Positions 23,646 to 47,743 are shown, counted from the first letter of the stretch. The stretch is 64,000 nt of DNA from Anaerolineae bacterium (GCA_004297445.1 SCUK01000052.1:9159-73158); one strand, 5' to 3'. Notes: generated from the sequence alone by a model not told the origin. Made by a program: numbers and translations.

Positions 23646-24224
23646 TTACGTCGGCTGATTTTCTAGAGTTTCCCGTATCGCTCTTGCATCTCGAATCCAA
23701 TTCTCAAGAAGTCTTCTACCCGGTAATTTCCTTACCAGTTTCTTCTTGCTGTTTGTCTCTTTGGCTTGTAGATAAAGATCTTCAGGAACTAGTTCTGTAA
23801 GATCTTCGATGTTTACAATACCTAGATTGCTTAATAAATCCACATACTCTTCTGTCATTCCACGAAGCACAAATAAGTCTGATGGTTGAATCTGAATGTA
23901 TCCGGAGTTTGTTACATTGAGAATCTCAACAATATGTGCATTGAGACTCTTGTGCTCTTGCCGTGCACGAATCGTCAGGCGGCGGTGCAGTTCAGGGTCG
24001 ATACGAAGAACGAACTTGCCGGAAAACGGGCGTTCCGGTTCTTCACCCCGTTCTTTGCAAAAGGCCAAGTAATCTTCTACCGAGTCGGCAAGCGCCTGAC
24101 GAAGTTCATCCGGCGTGGTGCCCTGAAACGTAATCACGTCGCTAGTATTGATGACCTCGCCGTGAAAAATCCCGGCTTCGTCATCAAATTCCACGGTGGC
24201 GATATAGTTTTTGTATTCCATCAT
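23646..24224 (-). CDS. hicB: HicB-family antitoxin with RHH segment and a C-terminal DUF4332-like extension
   Basis: N-terminal YIATVEFDDEAGIFHGEV...TFQGTTPDELRQALADSVEDYLAFC; RHH-like RLTIRARQEHKSLNAHIVEIL; extra ~85 aa ending KKKLVRKLPGRRLLENWIRDARAI; ATG abuts the hicA stop. Confidence 0.8.
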   Translation of the reverse strand: MMEYKNYIATVEFDDEAGIFHGEVINTSDVITFQGTTPDELRQALADSVEDYLAFCKERGEEPERPFSGKFVLRIDPELHRRLTIRARQEHKSLNAHIVEILNVTNSGYIQIQPSDLFVLRGMTEEYVDLLSNLGIVNIEDLTELVPEDLYLQAKETNSKKKLVRKLPGRRLLENWIRDARAIRETLENQPT

Positions 24225-24485
24225 CTATCCTTCCGGGGCGATTCCGGCGGTAAATAGGAACCGTCTCATAGATTTCATCGCGCCCTTGTCTGTTTCTTTT
24301 TGCGGGTGAGGGCGGTGAAACACGGCACGAACACCGTTCAATGTAACCCGCAAACGCGAACCACTACCTTCTGATATCTCCGCACCTAAGGCCGTCAATA
24401 GATTTTCAATGTCTTTCCAATTGAGGTTGGAGGGAATCGGGTCCGTGAAGATGCGTTCTAGAGTTCGACGCTGACGGGCATTCAT
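24225..24485 (-). CDS. hicA: HicA-family mRNA interferase toxin
   Basis: 86 aa; MNARQRRTLERIFTDPIPSNLNWKDIENLLTALGAEISEGSGSRLRV...FHRPHP; directly upstream of hicB. Confidence 0.85.
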   Translation of the reverse strand: MNARQRRTLERIFTDPIPSNLNWKDIENLLTALGAEISEGSGSRLRVTLNGVRAVFHRPHPQKETDKGAMKSMRRFLFTAGIAPEG

Positions 24486-24605: not shown

Positions 24606-24935
24606 TCATACCGCGAACATGGCCGCGAGGGTGGCCAGCACCGACTTGCCGGTAGCAGAAGACACCACACCTAGCCGTTTAACCAGCCTTTTCTTGTCCA
24701 CCGTGCGCAGTTGGTCCAGCACCACCCAGCCATTCTTACCCTGAAATCTGCAGGGCACCCGCGTAGGGTACTCCCGCCCTTTCGTCGTCATCGGCGCGAC
24801 GATGACTGTACCGATGTGCTCGTTCATTTCATCCGGCGAGATGACCAGGGCTGGGCGGGTCTTGCGCATCTCACGCCCCACGGTCGGGTCAAAGCTGACC
24901 AGGTACACCTCAAAGCGGCGGGCTACCACTCCCAT
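24606..24935 (-). CDS. mazF: MazF/PemK-family endoribonuclease toxin
   Basis: 109 aa; FEVYLVSFDPTVGREMRKTRPALVISPDEMN...VIVAPMTT signature; overlaps mazE by 13 nt. Confidence 0.85.
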   Translation of the reverse strand: MGVVARRFEVYLVSFDPTVGREMRKTRPALVISPDEMNEHIGTVIVAPMTTKGREYPTRVPCRFQGKNGWVVLDQLRTVDKKRLVKRLGVVSSATGKSVLATLAAMFAV

Positions 24936-25183
24936 TCCTCATCGTCCCACTCATGGTTCAGGTCATCGCTCTCCAACAGAGCGTCATCCCCAACCGCGGC
25001 CATGCGGGCGAAGGCTTCGGCCCAGCCGGTGCGAGGTTCGATCAGGGCGCGCAGAATGAGCTGGTTCTCACCGACAACCAGTTCGACTTCTTCGCCCAGA
25101 TTGGCCTGTTCCAGCAATATCTTCGGGATACGCACCCCCTGCGAGTTGCCGATTTTCACAATCTTTGTGGTCGGATTATTCAT
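24923..25183 (-). CDS. mazE: AbrB/MazE/SpoVT-family antitoxin
   Basis: 86 aa; KIVKIGNSQGVRIPKILLEQANL swapped-hairpin motif, acidic C-terminal tail; GGAGG 5 nt upstream. Confidence 0.85.
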   Translation of the reverse strand: MNNPTTKIVKIGNSQGVRIPKILLEQANLGEEVELVVGENQLILRALIEPRTGWAEAFARMAAVGDDALLESDDLNHEWDDEEWEW

Positions 25184-25247: not shown

Positions 25248-26096
25248 TTACCCCAACAACCTCTTCAAATAATCCAGATGCGGTTCGACGGCGAGGGCGC
25301 CCTGCTCAATGATGAAGGGAATCTTGGCGACATCGTTCAGGCCGATGTTGTACTCAAACGGCGGCACGATGGTGATGATCTCGGCGTGGTGCATCAGGCT
25401 GGCAGAGGCGAACTGGTAGGCCAGCAACTGGTTGGTCATGTTGCTGAACATCTGCATGGCGTAAGCGCCGACGGTGCGCACGTCTTTCTGCGGCGGGGTC
25501 TCGAAACCCACAGCGATAATGAGGTCTGCGCCGGCGCGCACCGCCACATCCACCGGTAACGGGTCGGACAGTGCGCCATCCACCAGCAGGCGGCCATCCA
25601 CCTCGCGCGGCTCGAACAACAAGGGGATACCGGCGCTGGCGCGCACCGCATCCACCAGCCGCCCGCGGGTAATCACCACGGGTTCGCCGGTCAGCAAGTC
25701 GGTACACACCACATGAAAGGGGATGCGGGTGTGCTCGAACATGGTGAATTTGCCGTAGGCGGCCTCGAAGCCGCGCAGTATGGGCGCATCACGGAAGATG
25801 CCAAAGCGCTCGGAGAATTTCAGCCATTTGGGCAGGGCCATCTCGGCAATGTCGCGATAATTCACCTGACTGGTCACGTCCGACTTCCAGGCCAGCATGG
25901 CGGTCTTGACGGCCTGTTCCGGGGCAAATCCCAGCGCGACCAGCGCACCGAAGATGGCGCCTCCGGAGCAACCGACGACGAAATCAATGCCGATGCCGGC
26001 CTCGGTCAGCCGCCGCCAAGTGCCCAAGGCGGCGGCGCACTTCAGCCCGCCAGAGCCGATGACCAGCGCCACACGTTGCTTCGGGGCGTCGCTCAT
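25248..26096 (-). CDS. patatin-like phospholipase (catalytic motifs intact)
   Basis: 282 aa; oxyanion GSGGLK, nucleophile elbow GCSGG, catalytic Asp DGALSDPLP. Confidence 0.85.
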   Translation of the reverse strand: MSDAPKQRVALVIGSGGLKCAAALGTWRRLTEAGIGIDFVVGCSGGAIFGALVALGFAPEQAVKTAMLAWKSDVTSQVNYRDIAEMALPKWLKFSERFGIFRDAPILRGFEAAYGKFTMFEHTRIPFHVVCTDLLTGEPVVITRGRLVDAVRASAGIPLLFEPREVDGRLLVDGALSDPLPVDVAVRAGADLIIAVGFETPPQKDVRTVGAYAMQMFSNMTNQLLAYQFASASLMHHAEIITIVPPFEYNIGLNDVAKIPFIIEQGALAVEPHLDYLKRLLG

Positions 26097-26938
26097 GTCG
26101 ACTCCATCAGACGCATCAATTGCGGCAGGATGCGTTCGCCTTCGCGCTCCCCCACCGAGATAATGTAAGGAACTTCGTGGGTGTCGAACTGGTGAATCGG
26201 GCGGTCGAACCGCGGCACGATGGAAATCACTTCCAAATGGTGCGCCATGCTATGAAAAGCCGAGGACGCTTTGAGCAGATTCCCAGTCATCACACCCTGC
26301 ACGTGGAAAAGGAACTTGCCAAAGTTATCCAGGGGGATGATGGGCGTGGATTCAAACCCGAGGGCCAGGATGATGTCTGCGCCTTCGCGCATCGCCACGC
26401 CCACCGGCAACGGGTCGGAAAGGTAGGCATCCGCCAGCAGTTGCTCGCCGCGACGCACCGGCGCAAACACCAGCGGCAGGGCGATGCTGGCGCGCACCGC
26501 CTCCCACAGCAGGCCTTCGCTCAACACCACCTGGTGGCCGGTCATGTAATCCGTGGCGGGGATAAAGAGCGGGATGATGCAATCGGCAAAGGTCTTGCCG
26601 TTAAAAGCGGTCTGAAGGCGTTCGTTAATCAAGCGGTCTTCGCGCAGGTAAAAGAACTCGCGCGCCTTGAACTGGCGCGGGAAGAGCAATTGCAGGATGG
26701 CGAGGCGATTGGGCAGTTCGGTGACATCGCGGGTCCACAGGCGGGCGTTCATCTCCACGATGTCATCCACCGGGTGGCCAAGAGCGAACAGCGCGGCATA
26801 GATACTGCCTCCTCCGCCGCCGACCAGCAGGTCAATTTCAATGCCCTCGCGGCGCAGAACGCGCAGCAGGCCGAGAGCGGCCGTGCATTTCACGCTGCCC
26901 CAACCCACCACCAGCGCGATGCGCTTGCGGTTCGTCAT
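26093..26938 (-). CDS. patatin-like paralog lacking the nucleophile serine (probable pseudoenzyme)
   Basis: ATG at 26938 (MTNRKRIALVV); aligns without gaps to the downstream paralog, but GCSGG is GGGGG and GSGGLK is GWGSVK; Asp kept (ADAYLSDPLP); ATGA overlap with the next gene. Confidence 0.8.
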   Translation of the reverse strand: MTNRKRIALVVGWGSVKCTAALGLLRVLRREGIEIDLLVGGGGGSIYAALFALGHPVDDIVEMNARLWTRDVTELPNRLAILQLLFPRQFKAREFFYLREDRLINERLQTAFNGKTFADCIIPLFIPATDYMTGHQVVLSEGLLWEAVRASIALPLVFAPVRRGEQLLADAYLSDPLPVGVAMREGADIILALGFESTPIIPLDNFGKFLFHVQGVMTGNLLKASSAFHSMAHHLEVISIVPRFDRPIHQFDTHEVPYIISVGEREGERILPQLMRLMEST

Positions 26939-27001: not shown

Positions 27002-27778
27002 ATGCCGCGCCCCCTGCGTTCCTTCCGGGTGGAGGCCATCGTCCTCAAACACAACGAACATGGGGAAGCCGACCGGCTGCTCACCGTCTACACCCGCGAA
27101 CGCGGCAAACTGAAAGTGCTGGCCAAAGGCGTGCGAAAGCTGAGCAGCCGCAAAGCCGGGCACGTGGAACCCTTCAGCCGCGTCACGCTGCTGCTGGCCA
27201 CCGGCAGCACCTGGTATGTGCTGCAACAGGCCGAAGCTCAGGAAACCTACAATGGCCTGCGGGCCGACCTCACCCGCATGGGCCAGACAGCCTACGCCGC
27301 CGAACTGTTGGACCGTTTCACCATTGAAGAAGAGGAGCACGCGGCGCTGTACCGCCTGCTGGCGCAAACGCTGGGGCGGCTGGCCACCGAAGACGATATT
27401 GACCTGGTTATTCGCTATTACGAGATGCGGCTGTTGGACAACCTGGGCTTCCGACCTGAACTGCAAAAATGCGTGGTCACCGGCGCAGCCATTGTGGCCG
27501 AGGACCAGTACTTCTCGGCATCGCTGGGCGGGGCGGTGAGCGCGGCGGCCGGGCGCGGGCTGGCGGGGGCCGCGCCGGTGAGCCTGGCGGCGTTAAAATA
27601 CATGCGCCACATGCAGCGCAGCAGTTACCGGGAAGCGCAGCGCGCCCGCATCGGCCCCGAGGTGAAACGCGAGATGGAAATCCTGATGCAGCATTACATC
27701 ACCTACCTGCTGGAGCGCGGCCTCAACTCGCCGGCCTTTCTGCGCCGCCTGCGGCAGGACGATGCCGCCCGCAACTGA
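27002..27778 (+). CDS. recO: DNA repair protein RecO
   Basis: ATG 27002; 258 aa; MPRPLRSFRVEAIVLKHNEHGEADRLLTVYTRERGKLKVLAKGVRK... OB-fold N-terminus typical of RecO. Confidence 0.9.
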   Translation: MPRPLRSFRVEAIVLKHNEHGEADRLLTVYTRERGKLKVLAKGVRKLSSRKAGHVEPFSRVTLLLATGSTWYVLQQAEAQETYNGLRADLTRMGQTAYAAELLDRFTIEEEEHAALYRLLAQTLGRLATEDDIDLVIRYYEMRLLDNLGFRPELQKCVVTGAAIVAEDQYFSASLGGAVSAAAGRGLAGAAPVSLAALKYMRHMQRSSYREAQRARIGPEVKREMEILMQHYITYLLERGLNSPAFLRRLRQDDAARN

Positions 27779-27804
27779 GCCTGCCCTGCTTTGAGAACTC
27801 CCCG

Positions 27805-29940
27805 ATGAAATCGCCCCTGAAACTCGTGCTACGGCTGGCAGGCGTGGCGTTGGTCGCCTGGGCAGCGTGGGGCCTGCGCGCCCATGCCGTTGCGGAATTG
27901 CCGCCAGACTACGACGAAGACGATTACCTGCGCGCGGCACAGTTGTACGCTGACGGCCTGCGCGCCGGGGATTGGCGTATCCTTACCGAAGTCAATTACC
28001 GCGAAGAACATCCCCCACTGGCAAAAGTCCTGTATGCGCTGCCGCTGGCCAGCCTGGAGCCCGCCGCAGAAATCCCGGACCGCCCTACCAGCGCCGGGCC
28101 GGCGCACGACCTGCCGCCGGAGTACCTGGAGGAAGCGCGTGCCCAGGCGGCGCGTTTCGGCACGTTGGAGGCCATCCTCCTGGCGCTGGTGAACCCGCTT
28201 GCGGGTCTGTTCCTGGCGGTGCATTCCTTTACCATCAAGTACCAATCCCAGGTGATGCTGGAAGCCCTGCCGGCACTGACCAGCGCGGCGCTGGTGCTGG
28301 CCTACGAGCGTTCGCGCGTGTGGGAGACGGGGCGCGCCAGCGGCTGGCTGGCGGCTTCGGCCGTGCTGCTGGGGCTGACGGCGGCCGGAAAATATATCTA
28401 CGCGGTGGCGGGCGTGGCGGCGCTGGCACACTGGCTGTGGCACGGGCGCGGTAGCTTGCGCAAAACTCTGCCGCTGGCGCTGGGCTGGGGGGCGGTTTCG
28501 CTGGTGGTGTTCTTCGGTGCCAATCCGTACCTGTGGCCGGACCCGCTGGGGCGATTGAGCGCTTCGGTGCTGTACCATGCGGGCTATGCCACCGGCGCGG
28601 CCGAAGTGGAGAGCGCGGGGTTCCCGGTGTGGCAACCGCTCGTGTGGCTGTTCGGTTCTGTGCCGTGGCATCCGGGGGCGATCCTGATATTGGCGGACCT
28701 GCCCATCACGCTGCTGGCGTTGTTCGGGCTGCGGCGCACGGCCAGTTCGCGGCCGGTGTTCCTGTGGTGGCTGGCGGTAGCCCTGTTGTTCCTGTTCCTG
28801 TGGCCCACCAAGTGGCCGCAGTACATCTTAGTACTCACCTTCCCGCTGGCGTTTGCCGCGGCCGAAGGCGCGCGGGCGCTGGTCTGGGAACCGCTGACGG
28901 CGGCGTGGCGCGCCCGCGGGACACGCCAACCCCGAATACACGCCCGCCGCGGCGAAGCGGCGCGCGCCGCGCTGTGGCTGCTGCCGGGCGTGGTGGCCGT
29001 AACAGTCATCACCTTCTTCCCGTTGCTGTTCCAGAGCGGCATGATGCTGACCGACTTCAACGCGCGTTCCATACGCGACGGGTTGCAGGGCGGCGTGAGC
29101 CGCGCGGCACTGGCGGGCCTCACCGGCCAGGTGGAACCGCCCGAAGAGTATTCGTTTTGGGAACCCGGCCGCGGCCAGGAGGTGAGCTATGTGGGGTTCC
29201 GCCAGTTCTTTGAAGTGCTCAACGGCATCCCGGATGTGTGGGTGTTCAATCTATTATGGATGATTCTCTCGGTAGCATTGCAGGTGGCGCTGGGCATGGG
29301 CGTGGCGTTGCTGCTGCACACGCGCGGCCTGCGCGGCCGCCCGGTGTGGATGGCGCTGTTCCTGCTGCCGTGGGCCATCCCGGAGTTCGTGGGCGTGCTG
29401 TCCTGGATCCAGGTATTCAGTCCGGACAGCGGCTGGGTGGGGCTGGCGGCCAGCGGCTCGTTTGGGCAGACCAACGGCAACCCGTTCGCAGCGGCCGTGA
29501 CGCAATGGACCAACGACCCCAACCTGGCGATGCTGGTGCTGTTGCTGGTGGGCCTGTGGATGGGCTGGCCACTCATCATGCTGGCCGCCTCGGCGGGGCT
29601 GCGTTTGCTACCGCGCGAAGTATATGAGGCGGCCGAACTGGACGGCGCGGGCGGCTGGCAGGTATTCCGCACCATCACCTGGCCGCTGCTGTTCCCCCTG
29701 CTCACGCCGATCATCCTGCTACGGGCCATTTCGGCGTTCAACCAGTTCTACCTGTTCTGGGTATTCAACCCGCCTTGGCCAGTCCTCACAGCCTCCTCGC
29801 TTTCCTATTATCTTTTCCGCTACGATAACCTGTACGCCGGTTCCGCGACAGTCAATATGATCACGGTACTGATTCTGGCCGGGATGATCGTGTGGTTCGC
29901 CCGCAGCACCCGCGCCGGCGAGGGAGTGACCTATGCTTAG
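27805..29940 (+). CDS. fusion protein: GT-C (ArnT/PMT_2-like) membrane glycosyltransferase domain plus MalF/UgpA-type ABC permease
   Basis: ATG 27805; residues ~30-80 DYDEDDYLRAAQLYADGLRAGDW...NYREEHPPLAKVLY, then about 9-10 hydrophobic segments; from about residue 380 RRGEAARAALWLLPGVVAVTVITFFPLL..., YVGFRQFFEVL, EAA loop EAAELDGAGGWQVFRTITWPLLFP. Confidence 0.75.
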   Translation: MKSPLKLVLRLAGVALVAWAAWGLRAHAVAELPPDYDEDDYLRAAQLYADGLRAGDWRILTEVNYREEHPPLAKVLYALPLASLEPAAEIPDRPTSAGPAHDLPPEYLEEARAQAARFGTLEAILLALVNPLAGLFLAVHSFTIKYQSQVMLEALPALTSAALVLAYERSRVWETGRASGWLAASAVLLGLTAAGKYIYAVAGVAALAHWLWHGRGSLRKTLPLALGWGAVSLVVFFGANPYLWPDPLGRLSASVLYHAGYATGAAEVESAGFPVWQPLVWLFGSVPWHPGAILILADLPITLLALFGLRRTASSRPVFLWWLAVALLFLFLWPTKWPQYILVLTFPLAFAAAEGARALVWEPLTAAWRARGTRQPRIHARRGEAARAALWLLPGVVAVTVITFFPLLFQSGMMLTDFNARSIRDGLQGGVSRAALAGLTGQVEPPEEYSFWEPGRGQEVSYVGFRQFFEVLNGIPDVWVFNLLWMILSVALQVALGMGVALLLHTRGLRGRPVWMALFLLPWAIPEFVGVLSWIQVFSPDSGWVGLAASGSFGQTNGNPFAAAVTQWTNDPNLAMLVLLLVGLWMGWPLIMLAASAGLRLLPREVYEAAELDGAGGWQVFRTITWPLLFPLLTPIILLRAISAFNQFYLFWVFNPPWPVLTASSLSYYLFRYDNLYAGSATVNMITVLILAGMIVWFARSTRAGEGVTYA

Positions 29941-30781
29941 GAGTACCCCGCTGGGCCGCGGCGGCGCCTACCTGCTTCTGGGGGTGGTGGCGGTATTCGT
30001 GCTGCTACCCATCTGGGGGCTGTTCAATGTGGCGCTGGATGGCTCGCTGAAAGGCGCACCGGTCGAATTACGTTTCGTACCCAAGGAGCCGTCGCTGGAA
30101 GCCTTCCGCAGCGTGTGGAATGAACCGGCGCAATCGTTGAATTTTCTGGGCTTGCTGCGCAACAGCCTGGTGGTCTCCGGCGGCGCGGCGCTGGTTTCGG
30201 TGGGGTTCGGGTTGAGCGCGGCGTACGCCTTTGCCCGTTTCCGCTTTCCCGGCCGCGGGCCGGGCCTGTTCCTGCTGCTACTGGGCACGCTGTTGCCACC
30301 GGTGGCATTGATGACGCCGCTGTGGTTGCTGCTTTCCATGCTTGGATTGCGCACATCCTTGCTGGGACTGATGCTGGTGTACACGGCGTTCGCCATGCCA
30401 TTCTGCATCTGGACGATGCGCGCCGCGTTCCAGGCTATCCCGCTTGAACTTGAAGAAGCCGCCCTGCTGGATGGCGCCAGTACGCTGGTGACATTCGTGC
30501 GGGTCAGCCTGCCGCTGGCGTTGCCGCCGATTGCGGTGGCGGCGCTGATTGCTTTCGTGCTGGGCTACTCGGAATTCGCCATCGGCTGGCTGTTCGTGGA
30601 GAGCGCCCAGAATGTGACGCTGGCGATGGGCATCTCCGGCCTGATGGATCTGGGCCGGCCATGGAGCGCGACCGCCGCCCTGGCCCTGCTGATGAGCCTG
30701 CCAGTGGTCATTCTGTTCCTTCTGCTGCGGCGCTGGCTGCTTACCGGCCTGTCGTTGGGCACCATTCAGGAAGAGGAGTAA
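29933..30781 (+). CDS. carbohydrate ABC transporter permease (MalG-type)
   Basis: 282 aa; 8-nt overlap with the upstream gene; EAA loop EEAALLDGASTLVTFVRVSLPLALP; six hydrophobic segments. Confidence 0.85.
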   Translation: MLRSTPLGRGGAYLLLGVVAVFVLLPIWGLFNVALDGSLKGAPVELRFVPKEPSLEAFRSVWNEPAQSLNFLGLLRNSLVVSGGAALVSVGFGLSAAYAFARFRFPGRGPGLFLLLLGTLLPPVALMTPLWLLLSMLGLRTSLLGLMLVYTAFAMPFCIWTMRAAFQAIPLELEEAALLDGASTLVTFVRVSLPLALPPIAVAALIAFVLGYSEFAIGWLFVESAQNVTLAMGISGLMDLGRPWSATAALALLMSLPVVILFLLLRRWLLTGLSLGTIQEEE

Positions 30782-30786
30782 TCATC

Positions 30787-31962
30787 GTGAGCAGCAGCCC
30801 GCTCCTTAACCTGGCGCAGATGCGGCTTTCCGACGCGCTGGAAACGGATGTGACCCTGACCACCTCCGGCACGCTGGACAGCCAGCATGCGATGCTGCGC
30901 TGCCGTGTGGAAGGGCCGGGGCATGTGCCGGAGAGTATCATCATCAAGCAGTTCACCCGGCAGGAAGACAATGCCGAGGGCGTGCGGCGTTTCCGCAATG
31001 AGTGGGCGGCGATGGAGTTCCTCAGCGGGCTGGGTCTGCAACTCTCGCCCAACCTGCTGCTGGGCGACCCGGCCGCCAATCTTATGATCATTGAAGACCT
31101 GGGCGTACGGCCCACGGTGCAGGACCTGCTGTTTGAGCCCAATTCCCAGAATGCCGAAGAGGCGCTGGTGGAACTGGGCACCTGCCTGGGCCGCCTGCAC
31201 GCCGCCACCGCCGGCCGCGAAGAAGAGTTTGCCGCCCTGCAAGCGCGGCTGGGCGCCCGTGCGCCGGTGAGCGATTCGAGCCTGGACCTGCGCCACCGCT
31301 GGGAGACCATCGAAGATTGTTTCGCCGGGCTGGGCATCCCCCTGGGCGCGGACTTTGCCGGGGCGGCGGCGGAGATGGAATCCTGGCTGCACGGCGTGCA
31401 CCCGTTACGCGCTTTGGCGCACTGCGATGCCGGCGTGCACAACTTCCTTTGGATGGACCCCGGTGTGCGGCTGATGGATTTTGAGTTTGCCTCCTATGAA
31501 TGCGCCCTGTTGGACGTGGTGCCGGCGCGGCTGGGGTTCCCGCCCTCCTTCCGCAGCCGGCGTGTGCCGCCGGAACTGGTGGCGCGGCTGGAAGCCAACT
31601 ACCGCACCGAACTGGGCAAGGCGCTGCCGGCGGCGTGGGAAGACGACTTGTTCCAGACCGCGCTGGTGGATGCCTGCGCCCACTGGGCGCTGAGCCGGGT
31701 GGAAGGCATCTGGCGCAATTACCTCAAGATGATGGTGGAAGAAGGCGAAGAGCGCGCCCGCGAGACCGTGGGCGTGGCGGATGAGCGCATCCAGGTGTAC
31801 CGGGCCAAAGTGTTTACCTACGTAAGCGGATTCGTGGCGGCTGCCGCAGAGTTCGAGCGCGCCGATGCCCTGCGCAAGCCGCTCAAGGCGCTGCTGGGCG
31901 AGTTCAAGAAACTGTGGCCGGATATCGCGCCGGTGGACGTGTACGCGGCGTTGGCGGAGTAG
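30787..31962 (+). CDS. APH-fold phosphotransferase (kinase) family protein
   Basis: GTG 30787, 7 nt after GGAAGAGGAG; nucleotide-Lys context ESIIIKQF, catalytic loop LAHCDAGVHNFLW, metal-binding LMDFEFA; start codon uncertain. Confidence 0.7.
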   Translation: MSSSPLLNLAQMRLSDALETDVTLTTSGTLDSQHAMLRCRVEGPGHVPESIIIKQFTRQEDNAEGVRRFRNEWAAMEFLSGLGLQLSPNLLLGDPAANLMIIEDLGVRPTVQDLLFEPNSQNAEEALVELGTCLGRLHAATAGREEEFAALQARLGARAPVSDSSLDLRHRWETIEDCFAGLGIPLGADFAGAAAEMESWLHGVHPLRALAHCDAGVHNFLWMDPGVRLMDFEFASYECALLDVVPARLGFPPSFRSRRVPPELVARLEANYRTELGKALPAAWEDDLFQTALVDACAHWALSRVEGIWRNYLKMMVEEGEERARETVGVADERIQVYRAKVFTYVSGFVAAAAEFERADALRKPLKALLGEFKKLWPDIAPVDVYAALAE

Positions 31963-42610: not shown

Positions 42611-43153
42611 CTACCCGCCATTCAGCATCATGAATTGAGACGCGTAGTCAGGGTTGGCAAAATCAAGCTTAATCCAGCCCTTGCCGAACAGGGGAGGCAG
42701 CTTGAAGCCCACCATCGTCACGGAAGTCAATAAACGCGTAACGCGCTCGCGCACTTCGGGCGGCTTGTTGGCGACCGAGTATATTCTCACCAGCCAGATG
42801 CCGACAAAGAGTCCAACAATGGCACAAAGGGCGGGCAGCCATTCAAACCGGAAACTAGACAAGAGGTCCAGGAAGCTGCCAAAACCATATCCTACAGCTG
42901 CCATCAGGAGTCCCCCCAGGCAGCCCATCCGCCCGGCCGAAACGTAGGCCTTGTTGGCCTGGTTGCACTCTTCGCAGATGGGGAACTTGAGCCAAACGTG
43001 CTGTTTGTTATTCCAACTGGACTTGCCCACCTGGTACACATGCGGTGTGACCGGATTGCCACAGGCCACACACCCAGGCGGCATGTTGTAACTTCCGAAG
43101 TACCCCACCTGGATGCGGGTCCTGGGTGTGCGCGCGGCTTTCTGATTGACCAT
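42611..43153 (-). CDS. hypothetical zinc-ribbon membrane protein
   Basis: ATG 43153 after GGGAGGG; CVACGN...CEECNQ pair of CxxC, then two hydrophobic segments. Confidence 0.5.
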   Translation of the reverse strand: MVNQKAARTPRTRIQVGYFGSYNMPPGCVACGNPVTPHVYQVGKSSWNNKQHVWLKFPICEECNQANKAYVSAGRMGCLGGLLMAAVGYGFGSFLDLLSSFRFEWLPALCAIVGLFVGIWLVRIYSVANKPPEVRERVTRLLTSVTMVGFKLPPLFGKGWIKLDFANPDYASQFMMLNGG

Positions 43154-43351
43154 GTTGCCCTCCCGAGAGAGAAAAGGGGATTCTGCCTGCCATTGCGAAA
43201 GTCTTTTTGAAAATCTTCTAAATCGGGCAGACATCCTCCAAAATGTGATATTTTTCACATTTTATTTATTGTACGCTTTTCCAATCGCTGAATCAACTCC
43301 CCTCCCCTTTTTTGACTTGCCTGCCGCTTCGCGCTATACTCTCACTACAGT

Positions 43352-43475
43352 TACGCACGGGGAGCTCGGTATTGCCGGGCTGAGAGGCAGACCGGCGTTG
43401 GGTGACGCCAACGCAAAGTCTGCGACCCGCGAACCTGAACCGGATAATGCCGGCGGAGGAATCGCTACCCCTGTA
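43352..43475 (+). promoter_or_regulatory. TPP (THI-box) riboswitch aptamer
   Basis: ggggagc...CTGAGAGg (43380-43386)...ACCCgcGAACCTGAaCcGGATAATGCCgGCGgAGGaA...cccctg; matches the conserved THI-element boxes; upstream of thiamine genes. Confidence 0.85.
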
Positions 43476-43481
43476 CCCCAC

Positions 43482-43516
43482 AGCCTCCGCCGACCCCCAG
43501 CGGAGGCTTTTGTTTT
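43482..43516 (+). terminator. riboswitch expression-platform terminator that also contains the thiN SD
   Basis: AGCCTCCGC-cgaccccca-GCGGAGGCT followed by TTTGTTTTG; the GGAGG of the 3' arm lies 8 nt before TTG 43515. Confidence 0.7.
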
Positions 43517-44153
43517 GCGAGCGGTTATCTTTGCTAATGGCGAACTGAACAACCTGGAAACGGCGCGCGGCCTGCTGCGGCCGGACGACCTGCTGCTGGC
43601 CGCCGACGGCGGCGGGCGGCACTGCCTGGCGCTGGGCGTAAGCCCGGCGGTGGTCATCGGCGATATGGACTCGCTGACAGCGGAAGAACTACGCCAACTG
43701 GAAATTCGCGGGGCCGACGTGCGCCGCCACCCGCCGCGCAAGGACGAAACCGATCTGGAACTGGCGCTGCTGCTGGCGAAGGAACGCATGGCAGACGAGG
43801 TATTGGTGCTGGGCGGGTTGGGGAATCGATGGGACATGAGCCTCGCCAACCTGCTGCTGGCGGCCTACCCGCCGCTGGCCGGCCTGCACATCACTTTCTG
43901 GGAAGATGGGCAACGACTGTTCCTCATCCGGGATACAGCGCGGATAGAGGGACATACGGGCGAAACGGTGTCTCTGATTCCGGTGGGCGGGGATGCGCAC
44001 GGCGTGACGACCGAGGGGCTGGAATATCCGCTGCACGGCGAAACGCTGGCCTTTGGCGGCACGCGCGGCGTAAGCAACCGGATGACTGGAGAGCGGGCGC
44101 AGGTGACGTTGGAGGCGGGGTTGTTGTTGTGTGTGGTGGGGACTTCGCAATGA
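43515..44153 (+). CDS. thiN: thiamine pyrophosphokinase
   Basis: TTG 43515 in frame; 212 aa; AVIFANGEL...LLLAADGGGRHCLALGVSPAVVIGDMDS...DETDLELAL...VLGGLGNRWDM; C-terminal thiamine-binding domain. Confidence 0.8.
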   Translation: MRAVIFANGELNNLETARGLLRPDDLLLAADGGGRHCLALGVSPAVVIGDMDSLTAEELRQLEIRGADVRRHPPRKDETDLELALLLAKERMADEVLVLGGLGNRWDMSLANLLLAAYPPLAGLHITFWEDGQRLFLIRDTARIEGHTGETVSLIPVGGDAHGVTTEGLEYPLHGETLAFGGTRGVSNRMTGERAQVTLEAGLLLCVVGTSQ

Positions 44154-44167
44154 AGAAGAAAAACCAT

Positions 44168-44186
44168 CTCACGCACAGCCGCAAAG
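44168..44186 (+). repeat. CTCACGCAAAG-type motif, copy 2 (diverged)
   Basis: ctcacgcacagccgcaaag, 14 nt after the thiN stop; followed by aaagacaaaagaata. Confidence 0.55.
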
Positions 44187-44216
44187 AAAGACAAAAGAAT
44201 AACCACAGATACAGTC

Positions 44217-44262
44217 GGTCGAGCGTTGCTCGACCTCAAGCAGAAGGCCTATGGCCTTCTGC
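44217..44262 (+). repeat. two adjacent GC hairpins in the thiN-thiB spacer
   Basis: GGTCGAGC-gtt-GCTCGACC (44217-44235, same core as the 32014-32040 terminator) and GCAGAAGGCC-tat-GGCCTTCTGC (44240-44262); no U tract. Confidence 0.6.
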
Positions 44263-44298
44263 ACTCGGATGAACACAAATAGAAAGATGAGGTCATGG

Positions 44299-45348
44299 AT
44301 GACAAAGTCGTTTAGCAAGGTGAGTGGATTTCTACTTGCAGTGTTGCTTGCTGGTTGCGCGGCGCAAACGCCGGAACCCGGCGCGCGGCGTACGCTGACG
44401 GTGTTGACGCATGACTCGTTCGCGGTGTCGGACGAGGTGGTAGCGGCCTTCGAAGCCGAGCACAACGCCGACGTTGTGTTCCTGAAAGGCGGGGACGCCG
44501 GGACAGCGCTCAACAAAGCGCTGCTCACCAGCCAGCCGTATGCCGATGTGTTCTACGGCGTGGACAACGCCTTCTTAAGCCGGGCAATCGAGGAGCACCT
44601 GTTCGAGCCGTATGAGTCGCCGCTGCTGGCGGACATCCCGGACGAGTTCGAACTGGACCCGGAACACGGCGCGCTGCCGGTGGACTACGGCGATGTCTGC
44701 ATCAACGCCGACCTGGCGTGGTTTGAAGAACGCGGCCTGGCGCTGCCCGCGTCGCTGGATGACTTGCTGAAACCGGAATACGCCGGCCTGCTGGTGGTGG
44801 AGAACCCGGCCGCCTCCTCGCCGGGGATGGCCTTCCTGCTCGCCACCATCGGCCATTACGGCGAAGACGGCTACCTGGAATTCTGGAACGCCCTGGTGGA
44901 CAACGAGGTTAAGGTGGTAAACGACTGGGAGACCGCCTACTACACGGATTTCAGCCGCTGGGGCGGGCAGTACCCGCTGGCGGTGTCGTATGCCTCCAGC
45001 CCGCCGTTTGAGGTGTTGTTTGCCGAAGAACCGCTGGATACACCGCCCACCGCGGCGCTGACCGGCGATGGCATGTGCTTCCGGCAGATCGAGTTCGTGG
45101 GCATCGTGCGCGGCGCGCCGGAGCGCGAACTGGCCGAAGCCTGGATTGACTTCATGCTTTCGCCACAGTTCCAGGAAGATATCCCATTGCAGATGTTCGT
45201 GTTCCCGGTGAACACGAACGCGGCGCTGGACCCGGCGTTTGTGGCGTTTCTGCAAGAGCCGGAGAACCCGGCGTTCGTGAGTCCGGCGGACATCGCCGCG
45301 CACCGCGAGGAGTGGATTGAGGCGTGGCGGGCGGTGGTACTGCGGTAG
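44299..45348 (+). CDS. thiB: thiamine ABC transporter substrate-binding lipoprotein
   Basis: ATG 44299 after GAGG (alternatives 44269 and 44287); lipobox LLAVLLAGC; TLTVLTHDSFAVS...VFLKGGDAG...ADVFYGVDN pattern of ThiB/TbpA; riboswitch context. Confidence 0.75.
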   Translation: MTKSFSKVSGFLLAVLLAGCAAQTPEPGARRTLTVLTHDSFAVSDEVVAAFEAEHNADVVFLKGGDAGTALNKALLTSQPYADVFYGVDNAFLSRAIEEHLFEPYESPLLADIPDEFELDPEHGALPVDYGDVCINADLAWFEERGLALPASLDDLLKPEYAGLLVVENPAASSPGMAFLLATIGHYGEDGYLEFWNALVDNEVKVVNDWETAYYTDFSRWGGQYPLAVSYASSPPFEVLFAEEPLDTPPTAALTGDGMCFRQIEFVGIVRGAPERELAEAWIDFMLSPQFQEDIPLQMFVFPVNTNAALDPAFVAFLQEPENPAFVSPADIAAHREEWIEAWRAVVLR

Positions 45349-45375
45349 GTGGCACAGAAAAAGAGACAAAGGCGC

Positions 45376-45395
45376 CTCACGCAAAGAACGCAAAG
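45376..45395 (+). repeat. CTCACGCAAAG-type motif, copy 3
   Basis: ctcacgcaaagaacgcaaag, 27 nt after the thiB stop; followed by ttaaaagcgcttagaat. Confidence 0.7.
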
Positions 45396-45452
45396 TTAAA
45401 AGCGCTTAGAATCCGATTCCAGTCTTCATGCACAAATCAGATGGAAAGGAAC

Positions 45453-45932
45453 ATGAGTATGGCGAAGAGAATCTCCCGACCGCACATGCCCGGCTATGGC
45501 ATCAAGCCGGAGAATGAAGGCGCCGGCCTGCTGCCCTACGCGTGGGTGGAGGAGCGCATGGCGGCGGCGCGCAATTACTGGGTGTGCACCGTGACGCCGG
45601 AAGGCAAGCCGCACGCCGCGCCAGTATGGGGGCTGTGGCACGCGGGCGCGTTCTATTTCGGGACGGGCGACACTTCGCGCAAGGGGCGCAACCTGGCGGC
45701 CAGCCCGGCCATCAAAGTGCACCTGGAAAGCGGCGACGAGGCGGTGATGATCGAAGGCGAAGTACAGAACGTGACCGATGCCACACTTTTGAAGACACTG
45801 GACAAGGCGTATAAGGCCAAATATCAGGTGCCGTTTCACTCGGCGCTGTGCGTGCGGCCGAAGGTGGCCTTCGCCTGGCGCGAAGCGGACTTTCCGGGCA
45901 GCGCGACGCGGTTTGTGCTGGAAGGCGATTAA
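45453..45932 (+). CDS. pyridoxamine 5'-phosphate oxidase-family (FMN-binding split barrel) protein
   Basis: ATG 45453 after GGAAAGGA; NYWVCTVTPEGKPHAAPVWGLWHAGAFYFGT...RKGRNLAASP pattern of the PNPOx-like fold. Confidence 0.65.
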   Translation: MSMAKRISRPHMPGYGIKPENEGAGLLPYAWVEERMAAARNYWVCTVTPEGKPHAAPVWGLWHAGAFYFGTGDTSRKGRNLAASPAIKVHLESGDEAVMIEGEVQNVTDATLLKTLDKAYKAKYQVPFHSALCVRPKVAFAWREADFPGSATRFVLEGD

Positions 45933-46033
45933 CGAGGCGACGTGTCAACGAGGCACGAGGAAACACCCCTTGATTCGTGCGTTACACGGGTTTTCGAATT
46001 TCCTCGTTTACCCATCCCTCGGCAACTCGTTGG
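45931..46033 (+). repeat. intergenic repeat family R (AACGAGG...CTCGTT), copy 1
   Basis: Starts inside the TAA stop (tAACGAGGCGACG); internal hairpin CGTG-cgtta-CACG; ends CAACTCGTTGG 10 nt before the thiP ATG. Confidence 0.75.
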
Positions 46034-46042
46034 CATAATCAA

Positions 46043-47743
46043 ATGAAACCCTCCCCGCGCTACGCCCTCCTCTGGTTGCTGCCACTTGGTTTCCTGGCGC
46101 TGTTCTATTTCTATCCGCTGGGCAGTATTCTGGCGCTGTCCTTCGGGCGCGGGGAGGACGGGCTGGCGGCGCCGTTCCTGGAGGCGCTGGGGTCGGAGAG
46201 CATCCGGCGGGTGCTGGGCTTCACAGTGTGGCAGGCGGCGCTCTCCACGTTGCTGACGCTGGCGTTGGGCCTGCCGGCGGCGTACCTGTTCGCCCGGTTT
46301 GAATTCCGCGGGCGGCACCTGCTGCGGGCGCTCACCGGCGTGCCGTTCGTGCTGCCCACGCTGGTGGTGGCGGCGGCGTTCAGCGCGCTGCTGGGACCGC
46401 GCGGCTGGGTCAATCTGGCGCTGATGAGCTTGCTGGGGCTGGACGCGCCGCCCATCGAGTTCCTCAACTCGTTTGCCGCCATCCTGACCGCGCACGTGTT
46501 TTACAACCTGACCATTGTGCTGCGGTTGGTGGGCGATTTCTGGGCGCGGCTGGACCCGCGGTTGGAAGGCGCGGCGCGGGCGCTGGGCGCGGGCCGCTGG
46601 GCGGCGTTCCGGCACGTGACGTTGCCGCTGTTGGCTCCAGCGATGCTGGCCGCGGCGCTGCTGGTTTTCATCTTTGATTTCACCTCGTTCGGCGTGGTGC
46701 TGGTGCTGGGCGGGCCGCGCTTCGCCACGCTGGAAGTGGAAATTTACACCCAGACCATCAGCCTGTTCAACCTGCCGCTGGCGGGGGCGCTATCCAGCAT
46801 TCAACTGGCGGCCACGCTGGCGCTGACGGTGGCCTACACGCGCCTCAATGCGCGCCTGAGCCGGCCGCTGGCGCTGCGCCCGCCGGAGAACGCCCGCCGC
46901 CCGCTAAACACGCCGCGCCGCCGCCTGCTGGCGGGGCTGACGCTGGGCGCGCTGGCCGTGCTGGCGCTGGCCCCGCTGGGCGCGCTGGCGGCGCGCTCGC
47001 TGGTGCGGCTGGAACCCGACCGCGGCCAGCGCACGGCGCAAACCGGACTGACGCTGGAGTTTTACCGCGCCCTGGCTTCCGGCGAGCGCGTCTCCGGGTT
47101 CTACGACTCGCCGCTGGGCGCGATCCGCACCTCGCTGGGGTACGCGGCGGCCACGGTGGCGCTTTCGCTGGCGCTGGGCGGGCCGGCAGCCTGGGCGCTG
47201 GCGCGGCGGCCGGAGGCGCGCTTGAGCCGCATACTGGACCCACTGCTGATGCTGCCACTGGGGACGTCGGCGGTGACGCTGGGGCTGGGGTTCATCGTGG
47301 CTCTCGATATCCCGCCGCTGGACCTGCGGGCATCGCCCCTGCTCATCCCGCTGGCGCACACGCTGGTGGCGTTTCCGTTCATAGTGCGCAGCCTCACGCC
47401 GGCGCTGCGCAGCATCCAGCCCAAACTGCGGCAGGCGGCGGCGGTGCTGGGCGCCTCGCCGTGGCAGGCGGTTCGCCACATTGATCTGCCGCTGGCGGCG
47501 CGCGCCGGCCTGGTGGCAGCGGCGTTCGCTTTCACTATCTCGCTGGGGGAGTTCGGCGCCACCGCGCTGGTAGCGAGGCCGGAATTCCCCACCCTGCCGG
47601 TGATGATCTACCGATTCCTTTCGCAACCGGGCGGGCTGAACTATGGGCAGGCGATGGCGCTGGCGACGCTGTTGATGGTCGTCACTACCATCGGGATGCT
47701 TGGGATTGAACGATTGCGGATTGGGGAGGCGGGGGAGTTTTAG
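46043..47743 (+). CDS. thiP: thiamine-type ABC transporter permease (duplicated two-module permease)
   Basis: ATG 46043 (MKPSPRYALLWLLPLGF); two tandem permease modules, each with an EAA-like loop (EGAARALGAGRWAAFRHVTLPLL and RQAAAVLGASPWQAVRHIDLPLA). Confidence 0.7.
   Translation: MKPSPRYALLWLLPLGFLALFYFYPLGSILALSFGRGEDGLAAPFLEALGSESIRRVLGFTVWQAALSTLLTLALGLPAAYLFARFEFRGRHLLRALTGVPFVLPTLVVAAAFSALLGPRGWVNLALMSLLGLDAPPIEFLNSFAAILTAHVFYNLTIVLRLVGDFWARLDPRLEGAARALGAGRWAAFRHVTLPLLAPAMLAAALLVFIFDFTSFGVVLVLGGPRFATLEVEIYTQTISLFNLPLAGALSSIQLAATLALTVAYTRLNARLSRPLALRPPENARRPLNTPRRRLLAGLTLGALAVLALAPLGALAARSLVRLEPDRGQRTAQTGLTLEFYRALASGERVSGFYDSPLGAIRTSLGYAAATVALSLALGGPAAWALARRPEARLSRILDPLLMLPLGTSAVTLGLGFIVALDIPPLDLRASPLLIPLAHTLVAFPFIVRSLTPALRSIQPKLRQAAAVLGASPWQAVRHIDLPLAARAGLVAAAFAFTISLGEFGATALVARPEFPTLPVMIYRFLSQPGGLNYGQAMALATLLMVVTTIGMLGIERLRIGEAGEF

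Follow-up and report, generated by a model that had tools for sequence, protein, structure and literature searches.

A GT-C glycosyltransferase-type module joined to a MalF-type importer permease in an Anaerolineae bacterium

Protein O-mannosyltransferases (PMTs; family GT39), such as Mycobacterium tuberculosis Rv1002c, Streptomyces coelicolor Pmt and yeast Pmt1/2/4, are membrane enzymes with the GT-C fold and 11 helices, to which a MIR domain is added in eukaryotes. S. coelicolor Pmt glycosylates binding lipoproteins of ATP-binding cassette (ABC) transporters, polysaccharide hydrolases and an ABC membrane protein (PMC6593405). Four residues are essential in the M. tuberculosis PMT (MtPMT): D74 (loop 1), D176 (loop 2), R441 and Y444 (both loop 5) (PMC12331936). 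Among ABC importers, the closest described systems are Escherichia coli MalF in MalFGK2-MalE, the Gram-positive proteins MdxF and GanP (Transporter Classification, TC, 3.A.1.1) and the trehalose-recycling importer LpqY-SugABC from M. smegmatis and M. tuberculosis. In this study, we analyzed a window of 64,000 nucleotides (nt) of DNA from an Anaerolineae bacterium (GCA_004297445.1, SCUK01000052.1:9159-73158). One gene in this window encodes a 711-residue membrane protein, in which a GT-C lipid-linked-sugar glycosyltransferase-type module is joined to a MalF-type importer permease. Our full-text literature search found no description of a GT-C/PMT module joined to an ABC importer permease, and the joining to a transporter subunit is reported for no PMT that we found in the literature.

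Architecture of the fused protein

An uninterrupted open reading frame (ORF) spans 27469..29940 on the plus strand and ends with a stop codon at 29938-29940. The ATG at 27805 was taken as the start codon: it is the first ATG after the end of the RecO gene (27778) and lies 27 nt past the RecO stop codon. The junction between the two halves (nt 28860-29040) contains neither a stop codon nor an ATG, and it is Arg-rich. A public protein collection holds an identical 711-residue gene call (P0121). An earlier note on this DNA had read both halves from a single ORF with no stop or frame change, and the continuous ORF and the identical gene call bear this out. The motifs that it had quoted also lie where it had placed them: ELPPDYDEDDY...EEHPPLAKVLY at residues 31-77, ALWLLPGVV at residues 389-397 and EAAELDGAGG at residues 608-617. 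An AlphaFold model of the full-length protein has a predicted local distance difference test score (pLDDT) of 88.5 and a predicted template modelling score (pTM) of 0.87. When this model was used as a Foldseek query, it matched MalF and SugA as well as Pmt4 and ArnT. Conservation was read from two sets, a 40-sequence alignment of the N-terminal domain and 45 fused homologues. The features of the fused gene and of the gene that follows it are given below, with loops called outer or cytoplasmic as predicted.

27805..29940, plus strand: whole fused gene, 711 residues plus stop; GT-C module, cytoplasmic linker and MalF-type permease
27805..28920, plus strand: compact 10-helix GT-C (PMT-like) module, residues 1-372 (AlphaFold, Foldseek, family profile, hhalign)
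27907..27927, plus strand: DYDEDDY, residues 35-41, acidic "DE" motif in outer loop 1, with D37-E38 as presumed catalytic pair
28006..28026, plus strand: EHPPLAK, residues 68-74, HPPL-K signature of PMT/PMT_2 in outer loop 1 (conservation and HMMER)
28261..28263, plus strand: E153 (in MLEALP), second conserved acid, outer loop 2 (invariant in both alignments)
28390..28392, plus strand: K196 (in AAGKY), conserved lysine at the outer end of helix 5/6 (invariant in both alignments)
28801..28824, plus strand: WPTKWPQY, residues 333-340, basic/aromatic motif in the last outer loop, at the position of the PMT Rx2Y motif
28921..28971, plus strand: Arg-rich linker, residues 373-389, predicted to be cytoplasmic (sequence, low pLDDT at residues 374-377, positive-inside rule)
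28972..29937, plus strand: MalF-type (CUT1) ABC importer permease core, 6 helices, residues 390-711 (PF00528, NCBIfam, Foldseek)
29047..29127, plus strand: family-specific helix in permease outer loop 1 (TDF..SIRDG..GGV...GLTGQ, residues 415-441; conservation, AlphaFold)
29626..29697, plus strand: EAA loop/coupling helix EAAELDGAGGWQVFRTITWPLLFP, residues 608-631, docking site of the ABC ATPase (conservation, MalF alignment)
29933..30781, plus strand: MalG-type permease gene (PF00528, 51.8 bits; NCBIfam MalG, E 9e-31)

When the N-terminal half of the window protein was scanned alone against Pfam and NCBIfam, no match was obtained at E <= 1. Furthermore, the Pfam scan gave no PF16192 (PMT_4TMC) match for this half or for 40 homologues. 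Therefore, the GT-C assignment had to rest on the family profile, hhalign and the predicted structure. A search for homologues of the N-terminal domain gave 345 matches, and a profile built from 40 homologues matched solved PMTs (Chaetomium thermophilum Pmt4, E 1.7e-5; yeast Pmt4, E 1.2e-4). PF02366 (PMT) was matched by 17 of the 40 homologues, with a best E value of 3.2e-8, and PF13231 (PMT_2) by 10 of them. By hhalign, the family was aligned with a Pfam-positive PMT/PMT_2 protein of locus L087 at a probability of 96.8 % (E 2e-10), the aligned span covering only residues 4-303 of this 492-residue protein. The AlphaFold model of residues 1-380 has a pLDDT of 93.2 and a pTM of 0.92. Its top 22 Foldseek matches in the PDB were all GT-C enzymes: PMTs came first, followed by STT3/PglB, AftB, ALG9/12/3 and Emb, and the best match was Pmt4 (9i5k_A, E 5e-5, TM-score 0.66). 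The earlier note had assigned the N-terminal half to GT-C, and the family profile against solved PMTs, the Pfam matches of homologues, Foldseek and hhalign agree on this assignment. The direct profile test failed for the window protein alone, but it is overruled by the family profile and the predicted structure. The ten membrane helices that AlphaFold places in residues 1-372 also fit the note's count of roughly nine further hydrophobic segments with no soluble C-terminal domain.

In the model, the module has the polytopic membrane fold of GT-C enzymes, with the conserved bundle of N-terminal helices and, in outer loop 1, juxtamembrane helices; this places it within the GT-C superfamily. It shares with PMTs the DE motif, the HPPL-K signature, the loop-2 acid, a conserved Arg where helix 2 begins, a Lys-Tyr after helix 5 and the basic/aromatic motif in the last loop. 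In contrast to PMTs, it has 10 helices in about 370 residues and is devoid of the PMT_4TMC region, MIR domains and the WW-like hairpin. Moreover, Glu replaces the loop-2 Asp, Kx3Y replaces Rx2Y, and no Pfam threshold is reached. Thus, the relationship to PMTs, as far as sequence comparison can tell, is visible at the profile level only: the module is a compact, distant relative of PMT/PMT_2 and is not a GT39 member by Pfam's own criteria.

The residues expected in a PMT-type active site are strongly conserved. D37, E38, H69, K74, R112, E153, K196, K336 and Y340 are invariant in both alignments. In the acidic motif, D35, D37, E38 and Y41 are invariant in the N-terminal domain alignment, and D35, D37, E38, D39, D40 and Y41 in the fused homologues; the latter also share E68, H69, P70 and K74, as well as W333, T335, K336, W337, P338, Q339 and Y340. 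HMMER pairs EHPPLAK with HPPLGK of solved PMTs. The partner of E153 is the Asp of "LLDA" in solved PMTs and that of "LLDG" in the bacterial PMT_2 protein, and K196 pairs with the K of "STKY" in solved PMTs. The hhalign pairings of the window family (left) with the PMT/PMT_2 protein of L087 (right) were as follows.

DYDEDDY: SDEAVY
EHPPL: AHPML
R112: R
MLEA: LLDG
GKY: CKE
WPTKWPQY: WPTKGFQY

Compared with the essential set of MtPMT, D37/E38 are present, Glu (E153) takes the place of the loop-2 Asp and K336...Y340 (Kx3Y) takes the place of Rx2Y. Judged from the motif and the loop position, with MtPMT itself outside the alignment, E153 appears to correspond to D176 in extracellular loop 2 of MtPMT. 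The invariant residues of the module seem to match the positions that are essential in MtPMT.

The model and the positive-inside rule suggest that both termini of the GT-C module are cytoplasmic and that the invariant polar residues, including the acidic loop, face outward. The orientation of this loop had been raised in the earlier note, and the outer face is the predicted one. In three related proteins (P0261, P0312 and P0318), exactly one extra hydrophobic helix lies between the GT-C module and an outward domain, which fits a cytoplasmic C-terminus of the module. The length and positive charge of the linker are conserved among homologues, and its predicted cytoplasmic position would suit the N-in start that the MalF core requires. 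Because the PMT-type active-site residues are kept on the predicted outer face, the module should transfer sugar from a polyprenyl-phosphate donor to an extracytoplasmic acceptor. We consider that it is probably catalytically active.

The C-terminal half was assigned directly. PF00528 (BPD_transp_1) matched residues 496-694 with 42.3 bits, above the curated cut-off of 26.4. The best NCBIfam match was MalF (NF008232; E 3e-27), whose 95.5 bits cover profile positions 285-450 only and stay far below the equivalog cut-off of 392. E. coli MalF (2r6g_F, E 2.7e-26) is the best solved relative and mycobacterial SugA the next (E 1.4e-14). By structure, the permease core finds its closest whole-chain counterpart in SugA (TM-score 0.72-0.78, target-normalised). 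The MalF type proposed in the earlier note therefore stands. One point needs correction: the core has 6 helices, and the extra N-terminal helices (1-2) and large P2 loop of the 8-helix E. coli MalF are missing. In the EAA loop, which pairs with EAS-MDGAG of E. coli MalF, A609, D613, G614 and A615 are invariant among the 45 homologues. The window protein shares with MalF this loop and an adjacent, translationally coupled MalG but differs in its additional 380-residue enzyme-type module and in the helix of outer loop 1. This helix, predicted at residues 420-439, contains the invariant residues T416, D425, G429, G430 and G438 in its surrounding motif and is missing from the adjoining canonical MalF' in L054. 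It may contact the GT-C module or a docking partner. SugA, like the core described here, is a 6-helix CUT1 permease, served by a lipoprotein substrate-binding protein (SBP) in a host with PMT-dependent lipoprotein glycosylation. However, SugA has no enzyme domain, and its sequence similarity is lower than that of MalF.

The permease helices carry two further invariant motifs, PWAIPEF (residues 523-528, nt 29371-29388) and R..I..FNQFYL (residues 640-650, nt 29722-29754). The segments of E. coli MalF that align with them are presumed to line the maltose site. The motifs bring in the conserved charged residues E527 and R640; pLDDT is below 50 at residues 526-532. Both residues are invariant and align with S329 and S433 of E. 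coli MalF, which are reportedly maltose contacts. We could not confirm this assignment in the literature and give it little weight. At the presumed contact positions, the window protein has W523 and the invariant residues E527, R640 and Q647 instead.

The MalG-type gene and the fused gene share 8 nt, which include the stop codon of the latter. A MalG orthologue (50-69 % identity) follows directly in 74 of 77 fused loci, namely in all that reach far enough, usually with a small overlap; it also lies downstream in the split loci L003 and L052. The EAA coupling loop is kept, so the fused permease should form a CUT1-type importer with MalG, with the ATPase and a lipoprotein SBP encoded elsewhere. 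There is a good probability that the permease is a working importer. It is usual for CUT1 systems of monoderm bacteria to share an ATPase that is encoded elsewhere.

Conservation, genomic context and wider family

We scanned one genome per species and found relatives in 374 species. The counts below refer to the best-matching 80 loci (GTDB representatives). All come from Chloroflexota: most bear the label Anaerolineae or Anaerolineales, some are Thermoflexales or Limnocylindrales, and several are labelled Chloroflexia. Many uncultured Anaerolineae thus carry the fusion. The GT-C module and MalF share one ORF in 77 of the 80 loci. In addition, full-length homologues of 691-755 residues with 47-57 % identity form at least 120 clusters. 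Their public labels name the permease ("ABC-type sugar transport system permease", "maltooligosaccharide transport system permease" or "sugar ABC transporter permease"), and the JGI entry P0235 has a double name that includes "ArnT-like glycosyltransferase". The fused MalF domains are 41-53 % identical across species and only about 25 % identical to the adjoining canonical MalF', which speaks for a separate orthologous group of old standing and against a recent local duplication. The fusion is almost certainly real and under selection. Its retention in 77 of the 80 best loci makes a strong "Rosetta stone" case for transferase and importer acting as one physical unit.

A split form exists in two loci.

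L003 5171-9003 and L004 113-2714: patatin, GT-C (367 residues), MalF (353 residues) and MalG genes

In this split form, the stop codon of the GT-C gene overlaps the start codon of MalF. Thus, the two parts can also work as separate chains. In a neighbour-joining tree of 264 GT-C modules, fused and stand-alone members were interleaved. The stand-alone class also contains fragments from contig ends and split or frameshifted calls, so this tree gives no conclusion on a single origin of the fusion.

The genes that recur near the fused gene in the 80 loci are as follows.

Canonical MalF'/MalG' pair upstream on the same strand: 37/80 loci
SBP upstream (the L054 representative scores as MalE-like): 31/80 loci
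GH13 lipoprotein gene directly upstream: 22/80 loci
Second GH13 gene immediately after malG: 17/80 loci
Second GH13 loci: L006, L009, L013, L022, L023, L033, L035, L046, L049, L057, L060, L062, L069, L073, L079, L083
ATPase motif anywhere in the locus: 6/80 loci

The recurrent gene order is SBP, MalF', MalG', GH13, [GT-C::MalF], MalG, (GH13). About half of the 80 loci lie within such maltodextrin clusters, with a MalE-like SBP, a second MalFG pair and GH13 lipoproteins; the window does not. Counted from the first position of the fused gene, the second GH13 gene lies at about +3000 to +4800. Its product is divergent (24-29 % identical to the upstream GH13), and in these 17 loci the fused pair is bracketed by alpha-glucan enzymes. 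The partners in about half of the genomes thus appear to belong to the adjoining maltodextrin/alpha-glucan cluster. Of 35 SBPs encoded nearby, 34 have a lipobox followed by an Ala/Pro/Thr-rich tether. Among the GH13 neighbours, the same crude criterion picked out a lipobox in at least 28 of 52, and the tethers vary more. Other conserved neighbours (RF1, UvrC, TsaD, Sua5 etc.) reflect housekeeping synteny and are uninformative.

To place the GT-C module in its family, we performed an exhaustive profile search, which gave 341 clusters (50 % identity) at E <= 1e-30. The classes among the 380 proteins collected are listed below.

Fused to MalF: 139/380
Stand-alone length: 164/380, some being fragments or split calls
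GT-C first, with a non-MalF C-terminal region: 30/380 (23 full-length at about 650-770 residues; 7 resembling MalF fusions that were truncated or missed)
GT-C module at the C-terminus: 10/380
Fragments: 37/380
Beta-propeller members: P0296, P0312, P0318, P0330, P0337, P0349, P0361, P0328
FGE-sulfatase-like member: P0261
N-terminal outer-region members: P0348, P0351, P0369, P0375, P0315

Ten of the non-MalF C-terminal regions were scanned: eight are Reg_prop beta-propellers, one is FGE-sulfatase-like and one had no match. Where the GT-C module is C-terminal (ten proteins), the chain begins with a helix and an outer region of about 150 residues that looks beta-rich by sequence, followed by several further helices. 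The family looks like a modular set that combines a "catalytic engine" with a targeting domain, and it has no Pfam model of its own. These sister architectures share with PglB/STT3, ArnT, AftD and YfhO a catalytic membrane module, an outward helix and an extracytoplasmic module. In the fused protein, the appended module is instead a polytopic transporter subunit and not a soluble domain.

Stand-alone modules are 42-51 % identical to the N-terminal domain of the window protein, as close as the fused orthologues. Their contexts were verified on long contigs.

L089 (1391-7179): directly after an SBP-permease-permease set (sugar CUT1)
L086 (2163-7146): after a phosphonate SBP-ATPase-permease set
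L002 (6001-10036): before an SBP and an amylase
L088 (2463-9732): in a GH3/GH5 cluster
L087: near GH99-like, PMT and GtrA-DPMS genes
L001 and L085: unrelated contexts

Because stand-alone members adjoin SBP-dependent importers, the link with importers is wider than the fusion.

Upstream of the fused gene, the window contains RecO and then two divergently transcribed patatin genes; a kinase-like ORF follows malG. The other features of the window are given below.

25248-26096 and 26093-26935, minus strand: tandem patatin-like phospholipase genes (Pfam E 1e-29 and 2e-23)
30835-31962, plus strand: kinase-like ORF of about 375 residues, weakly similar to choline kinase (E 0.003) and the LxmK lanthionine-synthetase kinase subunit (E 6e-5)
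43146-47743, plus strand: thiamin pyrophosphokinase, SBP_bac_6 protein and a 588-residue permease with two BPD_transp_1 matches (Pfam)
23646-24485 and 24606-25183, minus strand: toxin-antitoxin-like pairs (from translations only)

In L003/L004, the split form has a patatin gene immediately before it, but none of the other loci among the 80 has one. Therefore, patatin as a partner was treated as coincidence or as lineage-specific. The kinase-like ORF was dropped as a maltokinase or other functional partner because its similarity is weak and it has no counterpart in the 80 loci. The only SBP in the window (44251-45348) is of the thiamine/iron type, and the system at 43146-47743 is probably a thiamine-type ABC importer unrelated to the fusion. 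The toxin-antitoxin-like pairs comprise HicB-like (192 residues) and HicA-like (86 residues) proteins and MazF/PemK-like (109 residues) and AbrB/MazE-like (86 residues) proteins.

What the transferase module may act on

Our best reading, held with slightly less than even confidence, is a sugar-importer permease that carries an active polyprenyl-phosphate-sugar transferase, which would modify something that docks at the transporter. The GT-C module would accept sugar from a polyprenyl-phosphate donor on the outer side of the membrane. The MalFG platform, with MalF helix 1 and the outer-loop helix, may take the place of the outward-reaching, acceptor-presenting part that follows the catalytic module in GT-C enzymes generally and in the sister architectures. 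The transferase would then glycosylate what docks at the transporter, the likeliest targets being the Ala/Pro/Thr-rich tethers of the lipoprotein SBP and of neighbouring GH13 lipoproteins. Such a scheme would resemble that of Actinobacterial Pmt, which O-mannosylates ABC-transporter binding lipoproteins and secreted glycoside hydrolases. As to the acceptor, we favour on-site O-glycosylation of transporter-associated lipoproteins, but only tentatively, and we regard this specific proposal as less likely than not. Overall, the evidence favours an active transferase whose target is brought by the transporter, and it argues against the idea that the GT-C module replaces the binding protein.

Several findings weigh against this reading. 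No sugar SBP, GH13 or ATPase gene lies near the fused gene of the window, and tblastn with the GH13 and SBP genes of related loci gave no match in the window; in the missing SBP and ATPase genes, the window also differs from the E. coli maltose system. About half of the 80 loci, including the window, have no visible SBP partner. Among the 80 loci, the surroundings of the fused gene contain no conserved polyprenyl-phosphate-sugar synthase. The Ala/Pro/Thr-rich tethers may be a feature of all lipoproteins of these bacteria. As for the enzyme, the N-terminal half gave no direct Pfam or NCBIfam match, and the module is devoid of the PMT_4TMC helices, the acceptor-binding hairpin and the MIR elements of characterized PMTs. 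The substitution D176E nearly abolished MtPMT activity (PMC12331936), and the window family has Glu (E153) at what appears to be the corresponding position. As for the permease, if the maltose contacts that we presume for MalF are right, the substrate may not be a maltodextrin.

The transferase may instead be active on a non-protein acceptor, such as a glycolipid, a cell-wall or sheath polysaccharide or an oligosaccharide, with the fusion serving only co-localization or stoichiometric co-expression with carbohydrate uptake, for example as a link between sugar supply and the decoration of envelope glycans. The conserved active-site residues suit this explanation, and most bacterial PMT_2/ArnT-type GT-C enzymes act on lipids or glycans. 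The similarity of the stand-alone module to the fused orthologues suggests a MalF-independent function, and the stand-alone member of L087 has GH99-like, PMT and GtrA-DPMS genes as neighbours. Moreover, sister proteins carry Reg_prop beta-propellers, a type of domain that often binds carbohydrates. However, a covalent fusion kept in 77 of 80 loci points beyond co-expression, the 80 loci show no conserved genes for cell-wall or glycolipid biosynthesis around the fused gene, and the closest solved relatives, in both sequence and fold, are protein O-mannosyltransferases. We consider a non-protein acceptor rather unlikely.

The GT-C module may also be non-catalytic and act as an accessory: a dock for the SBP anchor or tether, a receptor for a lipid-linked or polymeric substrate, or a stabilizing domain. 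This covers the proposal of the earlier note that the module is the receptor of the transporter. Importer permeases commonly bear extra N-terminal helices, as E. coli MalF does, and a fixed packing of the two modules is suggested by the pTM of the full-length model. The module lacks the C-terminal acceptor-recognition elements of PMTs, and about half of the loci have no SBP nearby. In contrast, invariance of D37/E38, H69, K74, R112, E153, K196 and K336/Y340 is not expected of a pure scaffold, and the stand-alone module exists in the unrelated contexts of L001 and L085. Furthermore, a membrane domain cannot mimic the open/closed cycle by which an SBP triggers ATP hydrolysis in type I importers. 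A purely accessory role seems unlikely.

Conversely, the permease might be repurposed, so that MalF/MalG, powered by the ABC ATPase, would no longer import sugar and would serve the transferase, for example by dealing with the lipid-linked donor or the released polyprenyl phosphate, or by export or placement of an acceptor. The permease does form a distinct orthologous group, about 25-35 % identical to the canonical MalF'G' next door. It is often without an SBP of its own, being a second permease pair in a single-SBP locus, and the invariant charged residues E527 and R640 stand where MalF has its reported, unconfirmed maltose contacts. However, the EAA loop and the overall fold are those of standard importers, stand-alone GT-C members manage without such a partner, and we know of no type I importer fold that flips lipids or exports. 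This explanation is improbable.

An assembly or sequencing artefact, in which two adjacent genes were joined by a lost stop codon or a frameshift, had been raised in the earlier note; in spite of the split arrangement in L003/L004 and of broken versions in some noisy long-read assemblies (L052, L090 and P0017), it is excluded by the single-ORF form in independent species-level genomes from many studies and assemblers, by the protein clusters and by the conserved linker.

Meaning for Chloroflexota and for importers

Both halves of the protein belong to known superfamilies, and what is new is their combination, its conservation and the wider linkage between GT-C modules and ABC importers. Possibly, though we put this forward with reserve, the protein is a transporter-integrated glycosyltransferase, a new kind of accessory module for type I importers that modifies docking partners or the incoming glycan. 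The module of about 370 residues and 10 helices is among the smallest predicted GT-C catalytic units and may be an attractive minimal model for studies of structure and mechanism.

Anaerolineae abound in activated sludge, digesters and sediments, where they scavenge carbohydrates, and the envelope biology of Chloroflexota is poorly known. If our reading is true, sugar capture and extracytoplasmic glycosylation would be coupled physically, and perhaps functionally, in these bacteria, in a partnership that extends beyond the fusion. If the transferase acts on lipoprotein partners, it would be a dedicated, substrate-proximal device for protein glycosylation, the first of its kind in bacteria, and would give a first handle on protein glycosylation in Chloroflexota.

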